A DNA stretch of 64,000 nucleotides, from the NCBI GenBank assembly GCA_000004985.1, contig GG738851.1, one strand, 5' to 3'. Both the position numbers and the translations under genes were made by a program. The notes under the pieces were generated by a model. That model saw only the letters and a program-made list of their open reading frames with translations. It did not search any database and had not been told where the DNA came from. The DNA is from Naegleria gruberi. Its lineage: Eukaryota. Below, in pieces: positions 1,576 to 60,591 of this stretch (positions are counted from its first letter, which is position 1; each line of letters begins with the position of its first letter).

Positions 1576-2235
1576 TTATAATTTTGAAATAAGCCCATAC
1601 ATATACCATGTTATTGGGTTTTGAACAACTGAAATCACATCCTTGTCCTTCTTCAGCTCGGTGCTAGCATACTCCAGAGCTCCAATTTTATTTTTAATGG
1701 CCCTCAGCACAACCTGTTTATCATTTCTCATGTTAACACTGGCGAATTCCAGAGCTAAGCCGTTATTTTTAACAGCATTCAACACAATTTCTTTATCGTT
1801 TCTAAATTTATCACTGAGATGTCTCAGAGTCAAGCCATTTCCATCAACCATGAATGAAAGAAACTCTTTGTCTTTCCAAAATTTCAATTTGTTAACCATG
1901 ATTTCAAGAAATTCGTAATCTTCTTCACATACTCCTTGTTGGTAATTCTCTTCTGTTATTCTTTTCCATATTTCTGTAGCTTCTGATTCAGAAATATGGA
2001 AAGACAAGTAATTCCCCAGAAATAGTCCCAAATATCGTTTAATTTGCCTCCTGTCTCTTATCAGATCAATCTTCCAACAAATGTACTGGATAGGAATGGT
2101 GTAGTAGGAATTCATAATCTCTTCCATAGTTGTGTCACCCCGCATCTTGGATTGCAGAGAGGCAGAGGAGAATGAAATATCTACTAGTATGATGACTTGT
2201 GAATCTGGAAAACCATGAGAATAATGAAATGTCAT
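1576..2235 (-). CDS. DUF4116-repeat protein
   Basis: 219-aa ORF. C-terminal half has three ~28-aa repeats 'DKEIVLNAVKNNGLALEFAS..NDKQVVLRAIKNKIGALEYAS..KDKDVI' typical of DUF4116 repeats. Confidence 0.5.
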   Translation of the reverse strand: MTFHYSHGFPDSQVIILVDISFSSASLQSKMRGDTTMEEIMNSYYTIPIQYICWKIDLIRDRRQIKRYLGLFLGNYLSFHISESEATEIWKRITEENYQQGVCEEDYEFLEIMVNKLKFWKDKEFLSFMVDGNGLTLRHLSDKFRNDKEIVLNAVKNNGLALEFASVNMRNDKQVVLRAIKNKIGALEYASTELKKDKDVISVVQNPITWYMYGLISKL

Positions 2236-2879
2236 TTTTTTTCGTTAAATGGAAGATTCGAAAAGAGTTTTACTGAGAATATATTTAACAGTGAGAATTT
2301 TGTAAGGTGATATTCCTCCTATGGAAGATTACTATCACTAAAGTACTTAATTCAACTTGTTCACGAATCTTGTTTGAAGTAATTCCAGAGATCAAGATCT
2401 GAGTGATGTATAGTTCATTATGAAAGTGTTGCTACTCTCGTTAGTTTGTTATTTGGTAGTAATTATAATCGACATTGTGTCAGACTGTATTTAGCAATCT
2501 CAATGTTATAAATATTGTCAAAATATTCATATCCACAATATAGCAAGATGGTTGCCATCAGAGTTTGCAAAAGCAAAATGAAGAAATACTCAAAGGTGCT
2601 AAAGCTTGAAAGGAATGGAAATATATCCCATTTTACCTATTTCGTTGAATAAAAAGTCTTCATCCACAGAATACTTTACATACTTCATATCTGCTATCTC
2701 CACTTTAGACAATATTTCAGTAATTTCACTCCTTAAGAACTTATTCACACATTATTTCACTCTTAACACAAGTTTATCCACAAAGAATGAGAACTAAGAA
2801 AGTGGAGAAAACCACGCGAGTGATTCCTCATCCAAAAGAATACAATACCCAACACAAGCTTGTGTTCTCAGTGACGTTT

Positions 2880-3900
2880 CATTTCACTAATGAATTTGCC
2901 CTTCTACATCAATTTCATTGTTAGAAATATTAAGTGATGTTAATTGTTTCATTTCACTTATGAATTTGGCTCCTTCATCACTAATTCTATTGTAAGAAAT
3001 ATTAAGTGATGTTAATTGTTTCATTTCGCTAATATATTTGGCTCCTTCTATACCAATTTCATTTTCAGAAATATTAAGTGATGTTAATTGTTTCATTTCA
3101 CTTATGAATTTAGCTCCTTCATCACCAATTCTATTGTAAGAAATATTAAGTGATGTTAATTGTTTCATTTCACTTATGAATTTGGTTCCTTCATCACCAA
3201 TTTCGATTTCCAGAAATATTTAGTGATGTTAATTGTTTCATTTCACAATGTATTTGGCTCCTTCATCACAAATTCGATTGTTAGAAATATCAAGTGATGT
3301 TAATTGCTTCATTTCACTTATAAATTTGGCTCCTCGATCACCAGTTATATTGTAAGAAATATTAAGTGATGTCAATTGTTTCATTTCGCTTATGAATTTG
3401 GCTCCTCGATCACCAATTTCATTGTAATTGATATTAAGTGATGTTAATTGTTTCATTTCACTTATGAATTTGGCTCCTTCTATGCCAATTTCATTGTTAG
3501 AAATATCAAGTAATGTTAATTGTTTCATTTCACTTATGAATTTGGCTCCTTCTATGCCAATGAGATTGTAATAAATATTAAGTAATGTTAATTGTTTCAT
3601 TTCACTTATGAATTTGGCTCCTTCTATGCCAATGAGAGTGTAATAAATATTAAGTGATGTTAATTGTTTCATTTCACTGATATATTTGGCTCCTTCATCA
3701 CCAATTCTATTGCCACGAATATCAAGTGATGTTAATTGTTTCATTTCACTTATGAATTTGGCTCCTTCATCACCAATTTCATTTTCACGAATATTTAGTG
3801 ATGTCAATTGTTTCATTTCACTGATATATTTGGCTCCTTCATCACCAATTCGATTGCCACGAATATTTAGTGATGTTAATTGTTTCATTTCAGTTACTAA
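2880..3900. repeat. Tandem array (~14 units) of a 72-bp repeat encoding 24-aa leucine-rich repeats
   Basis: Unit 'tttcacttatgaatttggctccttcatcaccaatt..attg..agaaatattaagtgatgttaattgtttca' repeats head-to-tail with >90% identity. Each unit encodes EMKQLTSLNISxNxIGDEGAKFIS on the minus strand. Confidence 0.85.
2887..3237 (-). pseudogene. Frameshifted continuation of the LRR array beyond the stop of the F-box/LRR gene (truncated/decayed repeats or assembly indels)
   Basis: Just downstream of the stop at ~3238 the 72-bp repeat continues. One unit has a 1-nt deletion ('attgtgaaatg' versus 'ataagtgaaatg') followed by a 1-nt insertion ('aatcgaaattgg' versus 'aatagaattgg'). Frame is restored (ORF 2887..3168 is in the same frame as 3238..4266) but TGA/TAA stops lie in between. 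Confidence 0.4.
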
Positions 3901-4266
3901 TTCGAGTTCTTCTATGGCTTCCAGCAAATTTGTTGAAAATTTAACATTAACAATACTATTCATAAATTGGCTTTTCATACATAATTCAACTCGTTTCTCT
4001 GTAATTTTGTTTTTAAATTGAATAACAAGTTTTGAACGTTCCTTGATCACATTAAAGAATTGTTTTGAAATCAAAGTACAATTATTTAAAATAAACCACG
4101 AATCATCAAGCATTGAAATTATTTCAAAACAAATATCATCAGAAAATATTTCTTGTGTGTCGAGTTTCACAAACTTTTTTGCTTTCTCTTCCATAAAATT
4201 ATTATTATTGAATATTTCCTCCGAATTAATGAATTGATGATTTTCCTCTCTGTTTCGTTTGCTCAT
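3238..4266 (-). CDS. F-box-like / leucine-rich-repeat (RNI-type LRR) protein
   Basis: 342-aa ORF. N-terminal F-box-like segment ('IFSDDICFEIISMLDD...CTLISKQFFNVI') followed by nine or more 24-aa LRRs 'EMKQLTSLNIxxNxIGDEGAKYIS'. Confidence 0.65.
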   Translation of the reverse strand: MSKRNREENHQFINSEEIFNNNNFMEEKAKKFVKLDTQEIFSDDICFEIISMLDDSWFILNNCTLISKQFFNVIKERSKLVIQFKNKITEKRVELCMKSQFMNSIVNVKFSTNLLEAIEELELVTEMKQLTSLNIRGNRIGDEGAKYISEMKQLTSLNIRENEIGDEGAKFISEMKQLTSLDIRGNRIGDEGAKYISEMKQLTSLNIYYTLIGIEGAKFISEMKQLTLLNIYYNLIGIEGAKFISEMKQLTLLDISNNEIGIEGAKFISEMKQLTSLNINYNEIGDRGAKFISEMKQLTSLNISYNITGDRGAKFISEMKQLTSLDISNNRICDEGAKYIVK

Positions 4267-4460: not shown

Positions 4461-7049
4461 TTACCTTAGATTTACAATATTTTCCTTTCCTTCAGGATGA
4501 AGAATTGTTGGGAGTTTCTTTGTTATCTTTACACCAATAGTTGCTTGTTGAGGAATGTTTTCCAAAATATTTTGTGAGTTGGCTTGTTGAAGAGGTTTTC
4601 GTTTAACAGGAATAACTCTGAAAGAAATATCCCCTTTCTTTCCTTCTTCAGGCTCAACAATTGAAGTTGGAGAAGTTGGAGATGGTTGTTGTCCTGAAAC
4701 TGATTCAGTAGCCATATTTGGTGAGCTAATGGCTCTCTTAATTGTTTCTTCGCTTTGGACAATTTGTAAGAGTTGTGAATTTTGTTGTTGAATGGATTTT
4801 CTCAGAGACTCGTTCTCATCTTTGAGTTTAATCACCAATTGCTCTAGCTCTTCCTTTTCCTTCTTTAATTTTTCTCCTTGATCTGTTGAGAGTTTAGCAA
4901 TTGCCTTATTGTGTTGCTGAACTAAGAGTTCATGTTCCTTTGAAGCACCTGCCAAGTCCACTGACAATCTGATTCTCTTTCCTTCATTCATCATTTGGTT
5001 ATGTTCAAGAGACTTAATTTTAAGGAATAATTCTTGGTTTTGATCAATCAATTTGGCTGTTTTTAGCTCGAGAGAGGATTGTTCTTTCACATAGTGATAT
5101 TCTTTGTTCTTGAGCTTAAATAATTGCTTTTTAAGCTTCTTATATTTCTCCTCTCTTAATTGTTGGTTTTCAAGAAGCTCTGTTATCTTGGTTTCAAATC
5201 TTTGTTTTTCAAAAGATCTTTCCTGTGAAATAACTCTCAATACAGCAAGTTCTTGGTTAAGACTCTTGATTTCCTCACACAGCATGTCCTTTTGCTTTGA
5301 TAGAATGTCCACTTTTGCCTTGAGCTCCTTACTCTCCTCTCTTGTTCCTTCTGGATCCAGAGTAAGTTCAATTTGGTACATTTCCAATTTTCTTTTAAGT
5401 TCATCCATTTCCTTCTTATTGATATAAGATTGAGTGTCGACAGATTGATGAACTGCTACTGCCTTCTCCAACAATGATGAAAAATGTTCCTTAACAGCTT
5501 TCATTTCTTTGATGGCATCCATAATTTCAGTGTTTACCACTGGTGTGCTTGGAGTGGTAACAGTTGGCAATTCCTTTGTAAGCCTAGAAAGTTCATTAAT
5601 CTTGGAAAGAGCTTCGGTATACTTTAAGTGCATTTCTCTCATGGTGTTTTTTAAAGAAATCTCTCTTTCGATGTGGCTTTCTATTTGCTTTTCCTTCTTA
5701 CAAACCATCACTTCAAGCTTTTTAAGTTCTTCTCTGTATTCTTCTACTGCAAAATCATTGGTTTGCTTTTTTTCTGTTATTTGGTTTTCCTTCAATGAAA
5801 TCATCACCATGGCTTGTTTCAACTCACTTTGATATTGAAGAGAAATCTTTTCCACATTTTGTAATAGCTCAGTCTTTGTTGAGGAAAGCTCTCTTCTCAA
5901 GTTCTCGAGGTCACTGGATTTTTCTTGCAAGCAATCCATAGCATGTTTCTTTTTCAATTTCATGTTCTTGACCTTTTTTACTAATCCATCGTTCTCCTGA
6001 CAACTAGCATTCAATTCTGAAAGTAAGTGCTCCTTATGAAATAAGTAAAATTATAAATAATTTGAAACTACTTACATTATCCTTTGATAATTTCTCAATG
6101 ATTTGATCCTTTGTTTGAATAGTCCCAATAAATTCCTTAATTTTTTTTGCGTGCTCTCCCAAATGTTTTGCTGAAATGGAGAGACCTTCTCGTTTAAGCA
6201 TCTCTATTTGTCCTTTATGAGATTTGATTGATTGTCCTTGTAATGCACAAAAGACCATAAATAAAAATAATAGTTTTTGGCTATTATAATTTTCCTTTTG
6301 AATCTGTAAAGGTAAATAAAAATTCTCATTCTAATACTCACCTCTTTTTTGATTGTCTCTTCAAGAAAATTCTCATTGTTATGTATAATTTCGTCTAAGA
6401 ATGGCATTACCTTAGCAGACACAAAGTTCGAAAATCTTCTTTTCGACTCAAAGTTTCCAGTTCCATAACTATCTTGGAACAATTTGATAATCTCTTCTGA
6501 ACTTAATTTTGAAATATCGTAACAGGAGCCCACGAAAAAGTCTTCAATGCTTCCCAAAGAGTCTCCCTCAAGGAATTGGCTCAAATTTTCACAAGTGGTA
6601 AGAAAACTCTCAATCATCTCGGCACTGTTGTTGCTCTTCAATGAACCATTCTTTGAAACACATGTTTGTTGCACGATTGGGGATTGTGTTGGACCGGCAA
6701 TATGTGTTTCCTCTTCTTGATGTTGTTCTTCATCTAATTGTTGTTCGTCAAAGTTTGCAGGATTTGAAATAAAGGAAAATAAGGATTCATCTATTGTAGA
6801 CATATCGATTTTAGATTTTTGTACATTAGGATCTAGGTTGCTATCATCCTCAAGGAATGAAGCCAAATTATTATTTGTTGGTTCCGGAACTCCATCATCA
6901 CTTGAAAATGGACTTATATCAGTGGAATGTGCTCCTTGTTTAAAATAACTGTTTAACCCTTTTGATGCACTTCCCTTACTGGCTGATGATTGTGGCGTTA
7001 CCTTCTCTTCTTTAGGGGATAGATGAAATGAGTGGAAGATGTCATTCAT
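4461..7049 (-). CDS. Ser-rich N-terminal / long coiled-coil protein, 3 exons
   Basis: Exon 1 is 6342..7049 (ATG at 7049, 'MNDIFHS...'). Intron 1 is 38 nt (6304..6341, GTGAGT..TTTACAG). Exon 2 is approximately 6076..6303 ('IQKENYNSQKLLFLFMVFCALQGQ...KLSKDN'). Exon 3 ends at stop 4461 and is ~517 aa of heptad-rich coiled coil. The exon 2/3 junction is ambiguous: either donor GTAGTT at 6071 with acceptor TTTCAG at 6017, or donor GTAAGT at 6075 with acceptor TGTCAG at ~5997. Both keep the frame. Confidence 0.6.
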
Positions 7050-10912: not shown

Positions 10913-11920
10913 TTAACCAACAACCTTGTTCAAGACATATCCAATACCTAAAACAGCAGCAGCAGTCAAAGCATATTCAGCAACAGTCCAACCAACACCT
11001 GGTTCCGAAGAAGCAGAAGTAGTAGCTGCTGGACGTGGTTTACCAAACATGTTATGAAGATCCATTCCCATCTTTTGAGCAAGAGCTTCTTCATCTTCTT
11101 CATTAATATCCTCAAAATCGTCATCATTATCTTCTTCCTTATCATTACCAATACCTCCAGAAACAACACCACCAGCATTCAATTGTTTGAGAATATTCAT
11201 CAAATCAGCAGCTGATTGTTCATTATCATCCTCATCTTCTTCGTCATCACCTTGGAGATTAATTGGATTTCCTTGAGCATTGGCCAAAGAACCTGCTGTT
11301 TGGAAATCTTCAATTTCCTCTTCTTCATCCTTCTTATCATCTGTGGTTTCTGTTTCTTCTTGTGTAGATCCAACACTTCCAAGAGTATTAGCAAGAACAG
11401 ATTCTAACAAAGCATCAACATCCTTTGGTTGTGTATTTTCATCTGTTGTGGTTTCGTCAGTAGTAGTAATAGTTTCTTCGACTGGTGTAGTAGTGGTTTC
11501 TTGTTGTTGAGCATCGGATGATGTTGGTTGCTCTTCATTAAGTTGATTTTCGGTATTAGTTGTTTCTATCGATGATGATGCTGGTTCTTCAACTTTTTCT
11601 TGAACAACAGAAGATGATGTATTTTCCTCAGTAACTACTGGAGTTTCAACTTGAGTGGTTGTTTCTTCGGTGGTGGTAGTAGTTTGTTCTTCAACAACAA
11701 CAACAACAGGTTCTTCAACTTGAGTTTCTTCAACAACTGATGTAGTGGTAGTTGTTTCTTCAACAATGGTAGCTTCTTGAGTTGTGGTTGGTTCTTCAGT
11801 AGTAGTAGTTTCTTCGACTGGTGTAGTTGTGGTTTCCTCCTCTTGCACTGGTGTTTGTTCTTGTTGTTCAACAACTTGTGTTGTTTCCTCTTGTGTTGTG
11901 GTTGGTTCTTCGGCAGTCAT
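10913..11920 (-). CDS. acidic Thr/Glu-rich low-complexity protein with C-terminal hydrophobic (tail-anchor-like) segment
   Basis: 335-aa ORF. Repeated 'EETTTT/EEPTTTQE' tracts. C-terminus 'GWTVAEYALTAAAVLGIGYVLNKVVG' is hydrophobic. Confidence 0.5.
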   Translation of the reverse strand: MTAEEPTTTQEETTQVVEQQEQTPVQEEETTTTPVEETTTTEEPTTTQEATIVEETTTTTSVVEETQVEEPVVVVVEEQTTTTTEETTTQVETPVVTEENTSSSVVQEKVEEPASSSIETTNTENQLNEEQPTSSDAQQQETTTTPVEETITTTDETTTDENTQPKDVDALLESVLANTLGSVGSTQEETETTDDKKDEEEEIEDFQTAGSLANAQGNPINLQGDDEEDEDDNEQSAADLMNILKQLNAGGVVSGGIGNDKEEDNDDDFEDINEEDEEALAQKMGMDLHNMFGKPRPAATTSASSEPGVGWTVAEYALTAAAVLGIGYVLNKVVG

Positions 11921-20772: not shown

Positions 20773-20845
20773 GCTGGCGTAGCTCAGTCGGTAGAGCGTT
20801 GGTCTAATAAGCCATTGGTCGCCGGTTCGATCCCGTCCGTCAGCA
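20773..20845 (+). tRNA. tRNA-Ile (anticodon AAT)
   Basis: GCTGGCG acceptor pairs with CGTCAGC. D-arm GCTC/GAGC. Anticodon loop CTAATAA. T-loop GGTTCGATCC. Discriminator A. Followed by a T-rich tract. Confidence 0.8.
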
Positions 20846-31212: not shown

Positions 31213-34200
31213 TTATTCCTCCTTTAATAAAAATTTTCCAAGCAACGCATGAAGTTTTTGAGCTGCTCTTGCCTTTTCTTCCTTTGAGGAGAATAAATCA
31301 TCCAAATTCCTTGTTGAAATAAGAGTTTCCAATGTGGTCAAATGCTCTGTAAAGGTAAGATTATGATCTGAAACAAATCTTACTTGCTTCTTCTTTTCCA
31401 TTCTTTCACTTGTTGGTTCAATTGGTTGATGAGGTCTAATGGGGCTCTTCTTTAGTATTGGCGTAATGGCTACATTATTCATATTTGGGGAGCTATGTTT
31501 TTGTGCACTGGTTTGAGTTATCTGAGTTTCATCATCTTCTATACTGGTTTTTTCTGGTGTTGACTCTCCCACTGATGTTAATTGGACATCAGGTTTTTCA
31601 ATCTTGACCTGATTTTCAGGAGCTGTAAAAGTTATAGAGCACGACGAGGATGAATTGGATTGTTTTGGGGTACATCCAGATTCCAACTTGCTGAATAAAT
31701 CTTCTACAGATGAACTATTTTCCTTCTCTTCCTCTTTCATTATTGGAGATAATTCCAAAGCTCTATTAAAATCAGGAGTGATAAGGTTAATCACTCTTTC
31801 ACCATTCTCTTTTTTAGGAGTAATTGGAATATCTTTGATATCTATCATGGAACTGTCATTCAGCAGGTTATTTGGTGCAAGATTATTATTAACGACAACT
31901 GGAGCAGAAACAATATCGCTAATATTAAGCAAATTATTTACAGTTTCCTTCTTGACCTTTACCTCAACCTCTTCATCACTATCATCAATGGATAGAAGTG
32001 ATGATGACAAGAGACTAGGATTCATTTCTGGAACTACAAGTCTTGTTTCCTTTCTTTCACGCATCTTTTCCTTCTGTGATTTAGTCAACTTTAGTTTCTT
32101 CTTATTAGATTCTGTCCTTTCTTCTACTTCTTCCTTAAGGGCAATTTGTTCTTCTTCTTGTTTTACCTCTTCAGCCCTCTTTCTCTTATTGTCCTTATTT
32201 TCTGTCGTGGCTACAATGGTTGGTGCTTGCATTGCAGGTTTTGGTAAATCTGATTCTTCGAAAGGAAAGTTTGGTAAGTCAGCTTTAGAAATCTCTCCCT
32301 TCTGAAGTAAATTGGAGAAAGCTTGTTTCAAGCTTGGAGAGTAATTGAGAGAGGTCTTCGACTGTGAAAAGTATGAAATCCAGAATTGGGTGGTGATACG
32401 TTTCACTTTAGAATTTCTCTTAGAGTCCAATCCAATCACCAATACTTTCTCCATTTGATTTAACATGTTTTGATCAAAAACTACACCATCCTGGAGACAC
32501 CACTTACTAACTTGATTGAAAACACCTTCCCAAATATTTTCGCAAAGAGTGGCAAATTGTAACATCTCCTCTGTTGAATAGACAACACTTTGATTTTTCC
32601 TTGATAGGAATGACCCTTGAAGCTCAAATAAAGTAGTAAAGTCCTTATCAAAGAGAATCTCTTCGGCATATTCTTGAGCAAATTGAATTGCATGTTGTGC
32701 ACTTCTGGAGAGAGTTAAAATGTTCTTCAGTTCAGACATTAGTTGAGTTATTAAATCAAAGAACGGATCAGAAAGCTTTGAAAATTGTCTTCTATAATCA
32801 AATATCATCCAAACAAAGGTTTTGAGAAGTAATTGAAGATTGTGTATGGTAGATTTTCCTGATGGTATAGAAAGTATAGAAACCTTGAACCTCTGGGATT
32901 CATGACAAACAGTGCAAAGTAATGAAAGTATTTTGGTACCAAATAGAATCCAACTTCTCATTAGCACATATGACGTTGATGTTATACCGTTGATATCCTC
33001 TTTTTCAATCTCACTTAATATACAAAGATATTGACAGTTCAATTTCTCCAATAAATCTTCTGATATTTTTTGTAAATGGTGGTGAGAAAGGTTATTCTTC
33101 AAATGTTTGCTAATATAATGGAAAGGTGGCATGTTGGTATTGGATGTTACATTTCCAAACAATACAAGCATTTCTTTAAGAATATGAAGTATCTCACTGT
33201 CATTCGAAAGTATTGTGTTGATTACTTTCTGGTGAGCTTCTATACTAAACTCAGGTTTGATATCATCCGACATAATATTTCCATTAAGGGTAAGCTTGCA
33301 TCCAAAAAGATCAAAAGGATAAAATATCAGCTTCTCCAGTAATGGTAAAAATTCTGGAGTAAGTACCTTGCTGGTAAGCCCTGAATCCGTCTGTTTTTGA
33401 TTTTCTGGGTTTTGCTTACAAAGATAGGCTTTAAGCTCTTGAGCTTGCTTCTTTCTCTTTTGTAGAGTTTCTGTTGATGTATTCGGAAGATTAGCATCAC
33501 CAGTTTTGCTAATCATCAAAGAAAAGCATGTATCCACAGCTCTAATTTCATCCCTTATAGAGCTACAATATTTTTTCCATAAAATCATTTGACACTCTAA
33601 TAATTTAGTTAATCCTATTGTATCTGAGGAAATAGTTTTAGATACAACACATACTTCTTGATGTGTTGTTATTAAATCCTCCAGTAAAACAATCATCAAA
33701 TGAACCTTTCAAAAATATAACAAAAAATACTAAAGTTACTCACAATTGAATCGTTATACAGATTTGGAATAGTCAGTAAATCAACCAATACTCTATTACA
33801 TAACATTGTAACACTATTATTAATCATTTCACAAATCTTATCTCCATATTGTTTTGTTGGTGAATTATTGAAAGCCGAGAATGCAAGTCTATAGAGGCAG
33901 TAAATTAGAGCAAAGAAAGGAGATTTTTTCAGTTCAGGTGGCTTCAGTGAATCCTTGATACCACTTGTTATTGCCTTCACATCAATGAAAACCTTGATTG
34001 AATTGCATGTACCAGAAATTAGAAGATTGACTGGGAAGCATTCAACAAAGCTTTTGATAAATGCAGAAGACATTTCTTGAATCCATTCTTCCAACATTGG
34101 AGATGAATCCGAGGTAGAATAGTGTAAAACGTTTTCCACACAAAATGTTAAAAGACCTGTAATAAGTTGCACCAAAAGGGATGAATATTTTTCTGCATCA

Positions 34201-36108
34201 CTTTCTTTCATATCTCGTGGGACATTCCTTAAATATGAAACAATAACCTGACAAAGGGATCTAAAATAGAAATTGAGAGTTTTGCTAAAACGTTTAGAGT
34301 TTTCTATGGTTTGATCCGTTGTATCTACATTAAAACTCTGCACTAACCCAGCCACTAATTTGTAGAAAAAGGTATTGAAAAATACTTTGATATTACTAGC
34401 AAAAAATTCCAATCTTTGAAGGGCATCACTTGCTTTAGTATTTGGCTGGCAAATGAATAGGCCATCTTGCTTCAAACAACTCGCAGAAAATAGATAAGCA
34501 AAGTCCTTGCGAACAAGGAATGAAATGTCATTAACAAATGTAGAACCAGTTAAGAAATGTCTGTAAACCACATCCTCATCTAGATCGTCTTGTGAAAGTG
34601 CCTCGACCCTCTTTTTTCTAGCTTTGAAATTGTCTCGTTGGTCATTATATAACCATTGTCCCAAAAAGAGAACGAGCTGTTCTTGTAAAGCATAGTCTGC
34701 TGTTTCCTTGCTAGCTACAGCAGTAAATAGAGGTTTCAATAAATGTTCAAAGAATAAAGAAATTTCCTTATCTGCCTCAGGCAATAAATGAAGAATTATC
34801 TTTTGATAGCATATTTCTCTTAATTTTCTATCTGAAGGATTCGAATAGCCTTGAGCTGCTGTTTTTAGTGGTGCCAGTAAAGGCTTTAGCAATAATGCAA
34901 GCCTTCCTTTAGCATGTATTTTGCTATGTGAGCTCATTAACTGTATGAGCATGGTCCAACTATACTCGATACACTCACATACAAGCATATTATTTACAAT
35001 TTCCATAGTTTTAGAGGATTGGGAAGAACTTGCTTGAGAATCCTCAGATCTTAGTGCTAACTTAGGTTTGATAATTTCATTAAGGTTTGAAAGTACATTT
35101 TCTTTTGAAATATTTTTCTGTAAAAAGTAAAGAATATATCCCCAGGCTTTGAATCCTATAATTTGTTGTCTATTTGTTATTTCAGGCAGAATCTGGTTCC
35201 AATTCAACGTAGCTCCATTATTATTTGTGATGGCCTTTAGCTGTATTTGAGTAGTTTCATAGACTGGAACAGTTAGATTTTGTTTAAGCATTTTTTGATA
35301 ATCCTCAATTGAAGCTAATAAACTTTTAGATATTTCCGCTAAATCTCTTTCTGATATTTTGAATTTAGTATTATTACTGAAAGGTAGCATGTTTTTAAAG
35401 ACAGTTAACTCTGTAATCCTCTCAGCTGCTACACAAACACTACAAAAATGAGATAAAACGATAGATATCTTACTTACGTTTTGTGAGGTGACACAAGACA
35501 TTCGATTACATCAACAAACCATATCGATACAAATTTTGCTGAAATCTCTTGCAATTGATTCAAAAGTACTAACAGAGTATTCAAAGCTTCTGCAGTTGTG
35601 ATGTAATTTTGGTATGGATTCTTTATACCAACATGAATTGAGTTGAAAATATCATTTGAATGAGGCTCAATCACATTATATCCAACTTGTGACGAGAATC
35701 TCTGAACACCCAAACACCACACTGCTAGTGACAAGGACTTTTTCGATAAATTTGTTTGTTTTACCACAATTCTGAAAAATCTTTCTACATGAACCGAGGA
35801 GTACTGTTTAGAAATGGTTTCGTGATGAGCCAAAAATCCGTAGCAAGTAAATACTGTTGGGTTACTATCATGATAAATTAGTATACATCATACAATTAAA
35901 TCAAAACATACGTTTCTCCAACTTCAATTTCACTCTCCAGAATGTCTAAAAACCTATCCAAATTATCCGAAACAAATTGAAGTATTATTTTCGAATTCTT
36001 CTTCAATAGAGTTAATAATTCTTGAAATAAATCTGCATTTTCTCCTGAACGATTCTCCAAGTTGGTGAGCAACTCTTGAATAATTTGTTTTTCCGATTTT
36101 GTTGCCAT
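31213..36108 (-). CDS. RIF1: RIF1-like protein (HEAT/ARM-repeat N-terminal region, C-terminal SILK- and RVxF-type PP1-docking motifs), 4 exons, ~1590 aa
   Basis: join(31213..33705,33744..35439,35478..35864,35912..36108), complement. Introns are 47, 38 and 38 nt with GTATGT/GTAAGT/GTGAGT donors and ATAG/TGTAG/GAAAG acceptors. All keep phase. C-terminus 'PILKKSPIRP...KKKQVRFVSDHN' aligns with metazoan RIF1 'SILK...KVRRVSFADP'. Confidence 0.65.
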
Positions 36109-45703: not shown

Positions 45704-45775
45704 GGGGACCAGTGGGAATCGAACCCACGGCCTCTCGCACCCAAAGCGAGAATCATACCACTAGACCATGGTCCC
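45704..45775 (-). tRNA. tRNA-Pro (anticodon TGG)
   Basis: Reverse complement GGGACCATGGTCTAGTGGTATGATTCTCGCTTTGGGTGCGAGAGGCCGTGGGTTCGATTCCCACTGGTCCCC folds as a canonical cloverleaf. Anticodon loop is TTTGGGT. Confidence 0.9.
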
Positions 45776-55526: not shown

Positions 55527-58500
55527 ATGTTGCAGAGCTGTGCAAGAAGAGAGAAAAACTGGGTGCTGAGTTTCGCTCTAATTATCCTTTACAACATGCT
55601 GATCACACTTCTCATCCTACAAGAACCAACACATGCAACCATGTGTAGATTTGGATCACCAACATTTAATCAAAGAGATTTGTGTTCATCTGTTACAGAA
55701 GGATCATTCCGTCCTTCATGGTGCAGTGAACATAATCCTTTTGCTGCTGTGCCTCACTTGTTTAGTGACAACAAGTTTCCGAAGTGGTTAAATGTAGAGG
55801 ATGGAGCAATTTGTTCCACATCTCAGCCATACATATTCAGCTATATCAATGGAACACTGATTGATAGACCTCAAAGTGAAGATCCAAACAAATACATCTC
55901 ACCAAGAGATAAATGTAGATATATTTCAAAAATTAACACCATAGAGTTTACTGCCTCAGATGACAAGAATCCACAACGATATGTGGTATTGGGTTTAGTA
56001 TCTGGTCAGATTATTCTTATGAACTTTAACAGTGATGAGACGTACTCAGTGGGAAAGACTGATGATATGACCAATATTAGAACATTGGAAACTTTGACAA
56101 ATGGAACTGATTTATATGTGTCCAGTGTTTCTTTTGGTAATTCTGTTTCGTTATTTTATGGTACATCCAATAAGATAGACAACGTTAGATCATGTGGAAA
56201 TATTTTAGAGGTTGAACCAGACAGCGAATATGCACCTGATGTAAGGTTAATCGTGCATGAGAGAAAAATTTATGCATCAGTTGTTGTTTACAATAGTGTA
56301 GAGCAGAGCTTCTACATTCACTTTTACAGACTCTTTGGTTGTTCCTTTACAAAAGAGTTCCAATACAAGATTAAGGAGAAATGGGATTCAAATCTTGACT
56401 TTAAGGTTTCCTCTCAAGTAGGAGGATTCAAGAATAGTCTTACAACGCAAAGTTACCAAAGTGTTAGAACACTATTACAATTTTACACAACCAAGCATGT
56501 GAAAATTATTGAAATGACAACCAAGAATATTGAAATGGATTTGACTACTGTCGATGATTCTACCTTCTTTGTGGCTAATAGCACTGAAGTGATTACGGGC
56601 GCCACTATTGCTTATGAACAAATTAGAAGAGTTGATTTTAGCCAATCTTCTTGTGTTAAAGTTGTTGCAAATAAGGCTCAAGGAGCCAATTTGCTGGTTA
56701 CTCTTAATAGAAATGGTCAGACCATTTTAAGAGCAAGAAACCTGTTAGAGTTTGCAAATTATGCATTCTTTGAAAACCCTGACAGATCTTACTCTAATCC
56801 AGTAGGTAGAACTGTTCAGTGCAATATTTTGAATGGAACATTCTACGATACTAGAACTAGTAGCTGTGTACCATGTTATGAAACAGAGACAGTAATTACA
56901 GAAATTGGTTCTGGAGAGGAAATTCAAGAAATAAGGTAGGTAGTGGATTAATTTTTTCTTTCTAATGTTTTTGCAAAAAAAGAACGAGATTCCATAATGT
57001 ACCGATGGATTATGCTCAATTCTTTGATATTGACTTGGCTGAAAAGCTTGATATTAACGCACTCTGCTATGATATTATGCAAACACCTGCTCTTGCTAGC
57101 TTGTGTCAACAAAACCTCAATCAATCCAATTGTGCTCTAGAGGTCTTTTCCACTTTTGGTCAAACGTTTCTTCCAAACTTGTTGAGTGATTTTTGGGTTA
57201 ATCAAGTATTCATTTCCAAGACAGGTAAAGAAGTTCTAGTTTATGGCCTCCAACAAGAGATGTGTTCTCTTAATGGATTATATCTTGATACTTACAACAA
57301 GATTAGTTTATTGGGAGAGAGTGATTTTATGGATATTACCAGAAATGCACAACACATGTTCGTAACAATTTCAAGAGAACGTTGGGAGCTTCAATCTATT
57401 AATCGATTCTATAGCATTTGTAAGCAATTAGAAATTAATCCTGATGACCCATTCTTGAAACCATTTGCTGAACAATGTAAAGCCAATACACCAACTCCCG
57501 TCACACTCAATCAATTTGGACAATATACATCTAGCTGCTTTAGTGGAATGTCATGCCCATCACTTAAAGAGGTAGAAATAGTCAAAGTTCCTGATGGATA
57601 TTACACATCAAGACCTAACGCTGTGAAGGAATGTGAAAGTACCTATTTCTGTTACCAAGGCATCAGACAAAAATGTCCTCAAGGGTTTAAATGTCCTTAC
57701 AATAAGATGAACAAACCAATTGCTTGTAAATTTTCAAATCAAAATGGAAGGAGAAGAGATGTCAATTCTTGGGATACACCAAAGGGATCAGATACATGTT
57801 TCTCACCAGGAAACAGTGTTGCTCAACCATGCCTTAACGGAACAATTTGTGTTACTCCTTATTTCCCACCACTTCCTATTTCACCTGGGTTATATCTAGA
57901 AGGAAACAAGATTAGAAAATGTAATGTTGGTGATTATTGTAATTTGGGTCGTTTTGTTGGCTCGAACGAAAATAGTTCAGTATTACAATGCCCTGAAAAC
58001 ACTTATTGTCCTGAGCCAGCGATAATGGAACCATCTCTGTGTATTCCAAATGAAACTATGGCATTGTACTGCCCTTCTGGAACAACAACAAGAATGCCCT
58101 GCAATAGGGGATACTATTGTCCAAGACCTAGTATCCAAACACCTTGTAAATTGACTCAATATTGCGATGTTGGATCCTACGTCCCATCTCCTTGCCCAGC
58201 TGGCTATTACTGTCCATCACCTTCAGAGAAATTGATTTGTCCAAAGGGTTATTATTGTGTTGTGGGTAGTGTGTACCCAACTGGTTGTCCAACCTTCTCA
58301 ATCTGTCCAGAAGGAACCAAGGCCTATGAGGATTATGCATTGGGTGTTTTAATTGATATTTTAATTGCTGCAGCTGTTTTCTTGACTTACAAAATTTACG
58401 TATGGACCAAAGCATGTTGGAATAAATTCCAAGAAAAGAGAAGAAATAAGAAGAAGGAAGAAAGAGCTCAAAAAGTACTTAGCACTGCTCAGTTGGATCC

Positions 58501-60591
58501 TTTAGTTTCATTCTCTCAATATATCCCTAAGTTGACTGTTTCAGAAGTTATGGAAGGTTTATATAAGGAGGTTAGAGTTGAAATTGCATTCGAAAATTTG
58601 TCCCTCGATTTGAAAACCAACAATAAGAGAATTTTACATAATTTAAATGGTAAATTCAGAGCTGGTAGATTGACCTGTATTATGGGCCCTAGTGGTAGTG
58701 GTAAGACCACCTTGTTATCAGCTATTAGTGGTAAGGCACCTTATGCCAATGTGGTTGGTGATATCAAGATTAATGGTGTCAAGAGTTCCATGAAGAAATT
58801 CAAAAACGTTTGTGCATTTGTTCAACAAGAAGATTGTATGCATAGAGAGTTGACTGTTGAAGAATGTATTTATTTCTCTGCCAGAACTAGACTGAATGCA
58901 AAAGTGAGTCAAAAAACAATTGATTCCATTGTAGATGGTGTTATTCAAATTTTGGATTTGAATCACGTAAGACACTCAATTATTGGCGATGAAACAAAGA
59001 GAGGTATTTCAGGTGGTCAAAGAAAGAGAGTCAGTATTGCTATGGAATTGGTTGCTTGTCCATATGTTTTATTCCGTAAGTTTCAATTTTATATATAATG
59101 TTAACACTTCTCATAGTTGATGAACCTACTAGCTCCTTGGATGCCTACAGTAGTTTTGAAGTATCGAAAGCAATGAAGGATATTGCCTCTAGTGGTATAA
59201 CAGTAGTGGCAGTGTTGCATCAACCTAGATTTGAGATATTTGAAATGTTTGATGATGTTGTCTTGCTTGGTAATGGAGGTAGAATTGTTTACATGGGACC
59301 TTCTAAGGATGCTCTGAACTATTTCTCTGAGAAACTTCAATTGGAACCTCCTCCATTTGTTAATCCAAGTGATTTCTTCCTGGATGCTATTTACGATCCA
59401 AGTTTCACTTATCAAAATCAATCTAAGAGAACTGGAAAATATGTTAAATCTATGACCTGCCAAGAAATGTTTGATTTGTGGGAAGAAAATTCCAAGCAGA
59501 TTCAGGCCACTCCAATTGAAGCCAATATTTCATATGAATCTCTTAGAAAAGAGGAGAAATCCAGAGGACAAAATCCACTCATTCATTTGTATATGTGTAT
59601 TAGAAGATCATTCATATTGAGAATCAGAGACATTATGGGATTCTTTGTTGATTGTCTGTTAGTTTATATTGCAGGATTGGCACTTGGTATGATTTTCTTA
59701 AAGGATGCCTATGTTGGACCACTTCCTGAAGATATTATAGATACATGTCCTGCTGCTATTAGAAAGATTTGTGAATATCCATTGAATAATCCAATTATCA
59801 ATGTTGCCAGTACAATCCCTCTTGCCTTGGGATTGTGTGCAGGTATGTCTTCACTTGGAACATTTGGTACAAGACAAGAACAAGTAATTTTCAAGAAGGA
59901 ACAAGCTGCTGGATTATCTGTCATGTCCTATTTCTTGTCGAAAATGTTAGAACAAATTCCAAATATTGTTCTGGGTCCAGTTGTGTTCCTTTCCATTTTC
60001 TTCTCACTCTATTCACCACGAGCTACTTTCTGGGAATATTATTTGGTACTTTTGATGATGCACTTTACAACATTTGGATTAGGAACATTGATAAGTGTTT
60101 GTGTCAAGTTGGATTTGATTCAATTGGCCACAGCTGTCTTGATTCTCGTTTCACAACTTGTTGGAGGTAGTAAGCCAACTATTCCACAAATGAAAGAAAT
60201 TATTCCGCCACTCTTTTGGATCAGTTGCGTCTCCTATGTCAGATATGCACAAGAAGCATTATATTTAATGGAAATCAAGTACTATAAGGATATATTCGAT
60301 ATCAGGTCCTCTTTGGAAGTATTTGATTATGATTTGAGTAATATTGATTTCTGTATTGGAATGATCCCAGTTTTTGGTGTTGCCTTTAGAATTTTAACCT
60401 TGATAGCTCTTTATCAGAAGAGTGATGATTCATTGTGGAGCACTCTTTGGATGTATTTTACTTATTATTCAAATGTTGATAATTTGAAACTAACTGCTAA
60501 ATCATTCTTGAAGAAGTTTAAGAGAACTAAGAAAAAGAATGAAAACGAAGAATTATTACTCAGCACCAACGGTGATACAATAGTGCAATAA
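55527..60591 (+). CDS. Atypical ABCG-type half-transporter with ~1100-aa N-terminal extension (signal/anchor, large extracellular domain, Cys-rich 'CPxGYYCP' repeats, TM helix) followed by NBD and 6-TM domain; 3 exons proposed
   Basis: Proposed join(55527..56935,56983..59075,59117..60591). Intron of 41 nt (59076..59116, GTAAGT..CTCATAG) is strongly supported: it fuses '..VACPYVLF' to 'LDEPTSSLD' (Walker B). Intron of 47 nt (56936..56982, GTAGGT..AAAAAAAG) is inferred from frame compatibility only. NBD motifs 'GPSGSGKTTLL' and 'ISGGQRKRVSIA'. ABC2-type TMD follows. Confidence 0.6.

Follow-up and report, generated by a model that had tools for sequence, protein, structure and literature searches.

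The GALA (RipG) proteins of Ralstonia solanacearum are secreted bacterial effectors in which an N-terminal F-box or F-box-like head is followed by an array of nearly perfect 24-residue leucine-rich repeats (LRRs). The signature of these repeats is Ile5-Gly6-Asp7, Gly or Ala at position 9, Ala10 and apolar residues at positions 13, 19, 22 and 24, with no conserved Leu16 and no conserved Cys at positions 3 and 16 (Kajava et al. 2008, PMC2244805). LegL1 of Legionella pneumophila (4xa9) is a bacterial Dot/Icm effector with GALA-type 24-residue LRRs and without an F-box. In the FBXL receptors (Skp2, FBXL2, FBXL3 and FBXL17), an F-box precedes a solenoid of LRRs of the cysteine-containing (CC) type. 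The gene described here lies on the minus strand of a 64,000-nucleotide stretch of contig GG738851.1 of Naegleria gruberi NEG-M (hereafter the window) and encodes a head and an LRR array of this general plan (Table 1). It is best read as an ordinary member of a Naegleria-restricted, fast-evolving family of F-box-like/GALA-LRR proteins that is subject to birth and death of its genes.

The array was the only large tandem array that Tandem Repeats Finder detected in the window. When GAAATGAA was used as an anchor, 14 units were obtained at a spacing of 72 nt, except for unit 9 (3315..3245, 71 nt) and unit 10 (3244..3172, 73 nt). The repeat length at the protein level is 24 residues, in the 72-nt period of the 14 units as well as in the AlphaFold2 model of the protein. 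With the Asn of the unit taken as position 3, the I-G-D of the GALA signature was found as Ile in 13 of 14 units, Gly in 11 and Asp in 9, and the subsequent Gly and Ala occurred in 13 of 13 and 12 of 13 units, respectively. The further positions were Ile at 13, Met instead of Leu at 16, Leu at 19 and 22, and Ile at 24. A phmmer search of PDB sequences gave the RipG4 'GALA protein' (9j7j_A) as by far the best match (E=2.9e-38), in an alignment of 184 residues that had no gaps and kept the register of the repeats. LegL1 of Legionella (4xa9, 'Gala protein type 1, 3 or 4') followed with 1.3e-19, and the next match had 3.2e-19. A Foldseek search with the full model likewise placed the LRR domain of RipG4 on top (4.6e-15). 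Legionella LRR proteins, RNase inhibitors, NLRs and FBXL2 and FBXL17, both receptors of the Skp1-cullin-F-box (SCF) ubiquitin ligase, came next. The repeat length of 28 to 29 residues that defines RNase-inhibitor LRRs was not observed, and the RNase inhibitors were matches at the level of the fold only, with 14 to 19% identity.

Judged by sequence, the LRRs are of the GALA type, which belongs to the CC-LRR subfamily, unlike the 28- to 29-residue RNase-inhibitor type. An initial annotation of the window had described about 14 consecutive units of a 72-bp repeat encoding RNase-inhibitor-type LRRs. The number of units agreed with the 14.2 copies found, and that LRRs are encoded was confirmed by the Pfam LRR_6 match of the open reading frame (ORF), a model which is not specific to unit length; the assignment to the RNase-inhibitor type had to be replaced. 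The minus-strand orientation of the gene and two further 1-nt deletions in unit 14 were added to that description.

The protein shares with the Ralstonia proteins the order of head and array as well as N3, I5-G6-D7, G9-A10 and the lack of Leu16. Its identity to RipG4 is nevertheless only about 27%, although RipG4 was both the best sequence match in the PDB and the top Foldseek match, and its head is far more divergent than the F-boxes of GALA proteins. It is not a RipG effector, that is, a bacterial protein secreted by a type III system: the locus is a eukaryotic nuclear gene on an N. gruberi scaffold with eukaryotic genes on either side. Scans with the LRR protein found no relatives in bacterial genomes or viral contigs. 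LegL1 shares 28 to 29% identity with the Naegleria protein and reaches a target-normalised TM-score of 0.83 to 0.86 over the LRRs, but has no head homologous to the Naegleria head.

The best relatives of the protein were N. gruberi 'predicted proteins' with the same N-terminus, the same head and EMKQLTSL units at 63 to 78% identity. They include NAEGRDRAFT_45222, NAEGRDRAFT_58930, EFC45710.1, EFC37939.1 and the models numbered P0001 to P0007; they share the N-terminus MSKRNR... with the present protein, their heads are up to 86% identical to the present one, and their units follow the pattern EMKQLTSL[ND]I..N.IG.EGAK.IS. Membership in an expanded family with paralogous F-box/LRR genes of the same unit, as anticipated in the initial annotation, was thus borne out, and the family is restricted in its distribution. 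Only 19 relatives of the head were present among 1.84 billion cluster representatives; the named ones were all from N. gruberi and the others from soil or European Nucleotide Archive (ENA) metagenomes. A head-profile search of a word-indexed protein database gave no matches, a head-only search retrieved only P0003, and metagenomes yielded no match in a scan with the head profile or in another with a 29-nt pattern of the unit. Neither the head nor the unit was found by tblastn anywhere else in the 64-kb window. The literature searched contained no description of this Naegleria family. Compared with its close paralogs, the models of which contain 3 to 6 units, the present locus has the longest uniform run with 14 units.

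Five of five metagenome relatives for which contigs were fetched (L001 to L005) came from the same assembly (ERZ929261, run ERR1078381, PRJEB11402), with about 32 to 34% G+C. As all five derive from one sample, that sample seems to contain a Naegleria-like heterolobosean that is still unsequenced and carries genes of this family of its own. Intact genes are seen in L003, L004 and L005; the L001 gene comprises no more than four units, and its C-terminus is not LRR. The called product of L002 carries about 240 unrelated residues ahead of its F-box-like head.

Homology of the head to F-boxes is supported, at the level of sequence, through paralogs as intermediates. Over one and the same segment, paralog heads with 38 to 43% identity to the present head came up to the Pfam F-box cut-offs or just touched them: P0004 scored 21.1 bits on PF00646 (cut-off, 20.5), P0012 24.2 bits on PF12937 (cut-off, 24.3), and P0035 23.1 bits. 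Among the heads of the family 9 of 16 matched PF12937 and 7 of 16 matched PF00646, always in that segment. The sole PDB match of the head profile was the F-box of FBXO42 (E=0.084).

Several observations weigh against an F-box, and they would suit an alternative in which the head is no working F-box and the protein acts outside SCF ligases, as an independent scaffold of GALA-type LRRs preceded by a helical N-terminal domain specific to the lineage. The 342-aa ORF gave no Pfam F-box match at E≤0.1, and its head gave none even at E≤10. F-boxes are marked by L-P at the start and by V-[CS]-[KR]-x-W in helix 3. The present head reads F-S-D-D...I-S-K-Q-F-F; here, and in its close subfamily, F-S replaces L-P and F replaces the conserved W. 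In the AlphaFold2 model, residues 43 to 77 are helical without the usual breaks of an F-box, and fold searches of the head gave nothing significant. Comparable cases are the Legionella LegL proteins that lack an F-box and LRR proteins resembling RanGAP; many GALA-LRR proteins have no F-box (PMC2244805). We nevertheless regard this alternative as rather unlikely, given the identity to paralog heads at or near the Pfam thresholds in the very same segment. In addition, P0006 (SKQWFNV), the closest subfamily member in which the W is retained, is 85% identical to this head, and CC/GALA-type LRRs are the class typically fused to F-boxes. F-P and S-K-Q-W are kept in more distant paralogs. As the head has no Pfam match of its own but is homologous to paralog heads that do match, it was named a divergent F-box-like head; the term F-box-like of the initial annotation can be retained in this restricted sense.

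By analogy with FBXL and GALA/RipG proteins, the head would be the part that binds Skp1 within an SCF ubiquitin ligase, and the substrate would be held by the LRR solenoid; the proteins of the family are probably SCF substrate receptors. FBXL2 in complex with SKP1 (6o60_C) and FBXL17 (6wcq_B, 6w66_B) were among the Foldseek matches, with E values of about 1e-10 to 1e-8. In contrast to the FBXL receptors, however, the Naegleria units have 24 instead of about 26 residues and no conserved Cys, the repeats are far more uniform, and the head no longer shows the landmarks L-P and W.

The units were less uniform than first thought. Their nucleotide identity to the consensus was 86.5 to 97%, and pairwise identity averaged 84.8% (range, 78 to 97%). 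Typical pairs of units differed at 7 to 16 of 72 positions, and only units 1 and 3, 4 and 5, and 11 and 13 were nearly identical (2 to 3 mismatches each). By the Nei-Gojobori method, the proportions of synonymous (pS) and nonsynonymous (pN) differences over all pairs of units were 0.23 and 0.13, respectively. A unit of L001, an unlinked relative from another organism, differed from the units of the window at 7 to 13 of 72 nt, which is the same range as within the array. In view of the pairwise identity, pS and this comparison, the initial description of the array as highly homogenised, with units more than 90% identical, was overstated; at an overall pS of 0.23 the array is not freshly homogenised. 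The accompanying proposal of recent expansion or concerted evolution held in part. Protein identity of units was 0.80 within the window array, 0.75 within all arrays and 0.66 between arrays (permutation p≤2e-4), and the difference persisted when the window array was excluded. As units are more alike within an array than across paralogs, local duplication of units or concerted evolution does occur. Individual arrays also carry private signatures, such as GSK in 4 of 4 units of P0006 and IGIEG in four units of the window array. The array would have grown by local duplication of blocks of one and two units (1/3, 4/5, 11/13) through unequal exchange, with the array of each paralog retaining its own signature.

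Variation within the unit was not evenly distributed. Codons 1 to 10 (EMKQLTSL[ND]I) and the helix (G.EGAK.IS) were nearly invariant, and amino-acid variation was concentrated at unit codons 11, 12, 14 and 17. In these four codons 11 of 12 nucleotide columns varied, compared with 20 of 60 elsewhere (Fisher p=2e-4), and pN/pS was about 2.0 there and 0.24 at the other 20 codons, with similar pS (0.26 and 0.22). Because the hypervariable codons were picked after the data had been viewed, which biases pN/pS upwards, these statistics are no more than indicative. According to the AlphaFold2 model, unit positions 7 to 9 form the beta-strand and positions 16 to 24 the helix. Codons 11, 12 and 14 therefore flank the residue of the Asn ladder, immediately behind the strand, and codon 17 begins the helix. 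The conserved framework consists of the strand EMKQLTSL.I, the ladder of Asn residues and the helix IGDEGAK.IS, and codons 11, 12, 14 and 17 are likely to form a specificity-determining patch. Positive selection in GALA proteins acts mainly on the convex face of the helices, at positions 4, 8, 11, 15 and 17 (PMC2244805). In the Naegleria array, by contrast, the convex helix face is invariant and the variable codons correspond to positions 1, 2, 4 and 7 in GALA numbering.

As assembled, the gene encodes a 342-aa protein with a predicted disordered N-terminus, the divergent F-box-like head and nine 24-residue LRRs. The N-terminal start MSKRNRQDFENHQFINSEEIF is also present in paralogs P0001, P0003, P0006 and P0007. 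DSSP analysis of the model assigned strands to residues 80 to 84 and 105 to 110 of the linker and helices to residues 90 to 98 and 118 to 125. In units 1 to 9 a strand and a helix recur every 24 residues, with predicted local distance difference test (pLDDT) values of 97 to 99.

The reading frame is interrupted within the array. A 1-nt deletion at the end of unit 9, 6 to 8 nt upstream of the TGA at 3240..3238, brings this stop codon into frame. An extra A in unit 10, 35 nt downstream of the stop, restores the original frame. The two opposite changes are about 45 nt apart and lie on either side of the boundary between units 9 and 10. In the frame of the ATG at 4266 the only stops are those at 3240, 3231 and 3222, after which 110 codons are open as far as the TAG at 2889..2887. 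The open tail contains an ATG-started ORF of 93 aa (2887..3168, minus strand), which matched Pfam LRR_6 with E=7.9e-25. The TAG is in frame because unit 14 has lost two single nucleotides; had it kept them, the frame would enter a 15th unit and end with ...EMKRH at the TGA at 2870..2868. Identity to the consensus is 97% in units 11 and 13, and units 11 to 13 are without any decay. The initial annotation had recorded the pair of indels and a 93-codon open tail in the original frame. Both were recovered, but the deletion lies upstream of the stop and creates it, only the insertion being downstream, and the two are not within a single repeat.

We lean, with modest confidence, towards a locus that is either truncated to nine LRRs (342 aa) or a young pseudogene. 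The deletion at the end of unit 9 would have given rise to one or the other, units 10 to 14 would have become untranslated with their decay still to come, and the insertion and the deletions in unit 14 would be further lesions of the same kind. Broken frames within arrays would then be a recurrent fate in a birth-and-death family, and the recurrence of frameshifted arrays, both in paralog models and in a metagenome relative, makes a truncated or young pseudogene copy the most likely reading. Several N. gruberi paralog models also stop inside the array in a shifted frame. The models P0002 and P0024 end, according to the alignment, in alternative-frame translations of the unit, and the ends of P0001 (...DNPNW) and P0006 (...IGAIREQ) were read by eye as DNQIG and IGGNQI shifted by 1 nt. 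With alternative-frame peptides after 3 to 6 LRRs in P0001, P0002, P0006 and P0024, many 'short' members of the family in the reference proteome may be truncations by in-array frameshifts. The metagenome relative L002 (ENA ERZ929261, contig k127_8321), which comes from a Naegleria-like organism in an independent Illumina metagenome, has an in-array frameshift in the region 2040-2600. There, GAGAGCAAAG stands in place of GAG GGA GCA AAG, and beyond it a different frame is open for about 135 LRR codons. An intron at this break was considered and rejected, because the other frame continues as LRR straight from the break.

It is quite possible, though we would not expect it to hold, that the indels are artefacts of sequencing or assembly of a 1-kb near-repeat in a Sanger shotgun assembly, and that the real gene is intact. 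They might stem from a stretch of low quality, or the consensus might have absorbed reads that belong to other units, alleles or paralogs. The intact gene would encode about 459 aa with 14 LRRs, and a few residues more if the deletions in unit 14 are errors as well. The opposite indels cancel exactly, and a pair so close together has an expectation of about 5% if the two arose independently. Of the 15 substitutions and indels private to a single unit, 6 are in units 9 and 10 (binomial p=0.013); they include G16C, A20T and a unique AAG Lys codon at otherwise invariant residues. The insertion extends a run of A. Moreover, the tail is pristine, as the near-consensus units 11 and 13, the undecayed stretch of units 11 to 13 and 110 open codons in a genome with about 31% G+C attest. 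All these points count against a real lesion, and the clustering of private changes together with opposite indels fits a low-quality patch as well as a complex mutation; the indels may be errors. The shifted ends of several paralog models from the same assembly could likewise mean a systematic assembly problem in arrays. Such lesions do occur in this family, however, as shown by the similar in-array frameshift and open LRR tail in the Illumina-based L002, and two more deletions are found in unit 14. The 342-aa product was absent from a collection of 15 billion proteins in which five neighbouring genes were present, which is consistent with annotators finding no clean gene model; the locus is seemingly without a deposited one.

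That the interruption is bypassed by a short intron or by programmed frameshifting, giving a full-length protein from the sequence as assembled, is hardly credible and was rejected. Formally, splicing at any of fourteen GT..AG pairs of 129 to 300 nt would take out the stops and leave 50 or more further codons open. As candidate donors, however, GTGATCGA, GTGAAATG and GTGATGAA are ordinary repeat sequence found in almost every unit, and the pairs that skip the stops use only repeat-internal GTGA donors. The 'intron' would itself be homologous coding repeat, the splicing of which would delete parts of units, while frameshifting would have to occur twice, in opposite directions, at sites 45 nt apart that enclose three stops.

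Table 1. Features of the F-box-like/GALA-LRR locus (positions in the window)
Feature	Position	Strand	Basis
LRR array	2876..3896	-	Tandem Repeats Finder: period 72, 14.2 copies, 86% matches, 1% indels, score 1339
ORF as assembled, 342 aa, ATG 4266 to TGA 3240..3238	3238..4266	-	ORF list; Pfam LRR_6 E=2.4e-40; AlphaFold2 mean pLDDT 87.9
N-terminal residues 1-39 (MSKRNREENHQF...), predicted disordered, common to close paralogs	4150..4266	-	pLDDT <50 for residues 1-35
Divergent F-box-like head, residues 40-78 (IFSDDICFEIISMLDDSWFILNNCTLISKQFFNVIKERS)	4033..4149	-	Column-for-column alignment with paralog heads matching Pfam F-box/F-box-like
Linker, residues 79-125, two degenerate strand-helix turns capping the solenoid	3892..4032	-	DSSP on model
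LRR units 1-9, 72 nt/24 aa each (unit 9: 71 nt), translated in the ORF	3245..3891	-	Unit table
1-nt deletion (ATTAGT to ATTGT), end of unit 9	3246..3248	-	Unit 9 aligned to consensus
Three in-frame stops (TGA 3240..3238, others starting at 3231 and 3222) in out-of-frame segment	3220..3240	-	Frame reading
1-nt insertion, extra A (CGAATTGG to CGAAATTGG), unit 10; original frame restored	3201..3203	-	Unit 10 aligned to consensus
Open tail, original frame, 110 codons: remainder of unit 10 and units 11-14	2890..3219	-	Frame reading
Two further 1-nt deletions, unit 14 (GAAGGAGCCAAATT to GAAGGGCAAATT)	2893..2904	-	Unit alignment to consensus
Start of 15th unit (GAAATGAAACG...) and TGA 2870..2868	2868..2886	-	Tandem Repeats Finder array to 2876; three-frame translation

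Plus-strand ORFs within the array (e.g. 3686..4021) were set aside as by-products of the antisense strand of the repeat. Another five ORFs in the window were letter-identical to EFC48338, EFC48473, EFC48340, EFC48341 and EFC48345 of N. gruberi NEG-M, all from one scaffold of 693,645 bp. The window also carries genes for a kinesin, an RRM protein and tRNA-Ile(AAU), in agreement with a eukaryote. The genes for tRNA-Ile(AAU) and tRNA-Pro(UGG) are at 20773..20845 (plus strand) and 45704..45775 (minus strand), and the A34 isoleucine anticodon is of the eukaryotic type. The downstream neighbour of the LRR gene (1576..2235, minus strand) encodes 219 aa with DUF4116 repeats (Pfam E=8.3e-40), identical to EFC48473/NAEGRDRAFT_63632, and belongs to another repeat family without an assigned function. 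The upstream neighbour (4461..6014, minus strand) encodes a Lys/Glu/Leu-rich, coiled-coil-looking protein of 517 aa with no Pfam family and ends 195 nt before the ATG of the LRR gene. A short tandem repeat of 18/36 bp (2.2 to 3.3 copies, 71 to 74% matches) was located at 11744..11822, inside a 335-aa ORF without a Pfam family (10913..11920, minus strand). Long ORFs on the same strand abut or overlap by 1 to 4 nt in two places, 31213..33699 with 33696..35501 (minus strand) and 57005..59098 with 59098..60591 (plus strand); each pair may represent a single gene interrupted by a frameshift or a short intron.

The 2008 'plants to bacteria?' proposal did not have Naegleria among the organisms in which GALA-type or GALA-like LRRs were found (PMC2244805), and no paper linking Naegleria, GALA and Ralstonia was found in the literature searched. 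That amoebal families with an F-box-like head and true GALA-type LRRs, rather than plants, were the eukaryotic source of the GALA-LRR effectors of Ralstonia (GALA/RipG) and Legionella (LegL) is an improbable conjecture. If it were true, free-living amoebae such as Naegleria would hold large native GALA-type families and be a donor pool for the soil and water bacteria that meet them.

The significance of the results is modest, and they hold no surprise for specialists in the evolution of LRRs or F-boxes. A probably unannotated N. gruberi locus was given a gene identity, and its repeat class was corrected from RNase-inhibitor-like to GALA/CC-type, the LRR class that is normally tied to SCF ubiquitin ligases. 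A eukaryotic comparison is also provided for the bacterial GALA and LegL effectors. For the organism itself, the results point to an amoeba with a private adaptor family of fast turnover, in which a conserved framework carries a variable patch of four positions beside the Asn ladder and many copies are broken within the array. Such a pattern would be expected of recognition modules under changing selection, for example against prey, symbionts or intracellular bacteria.

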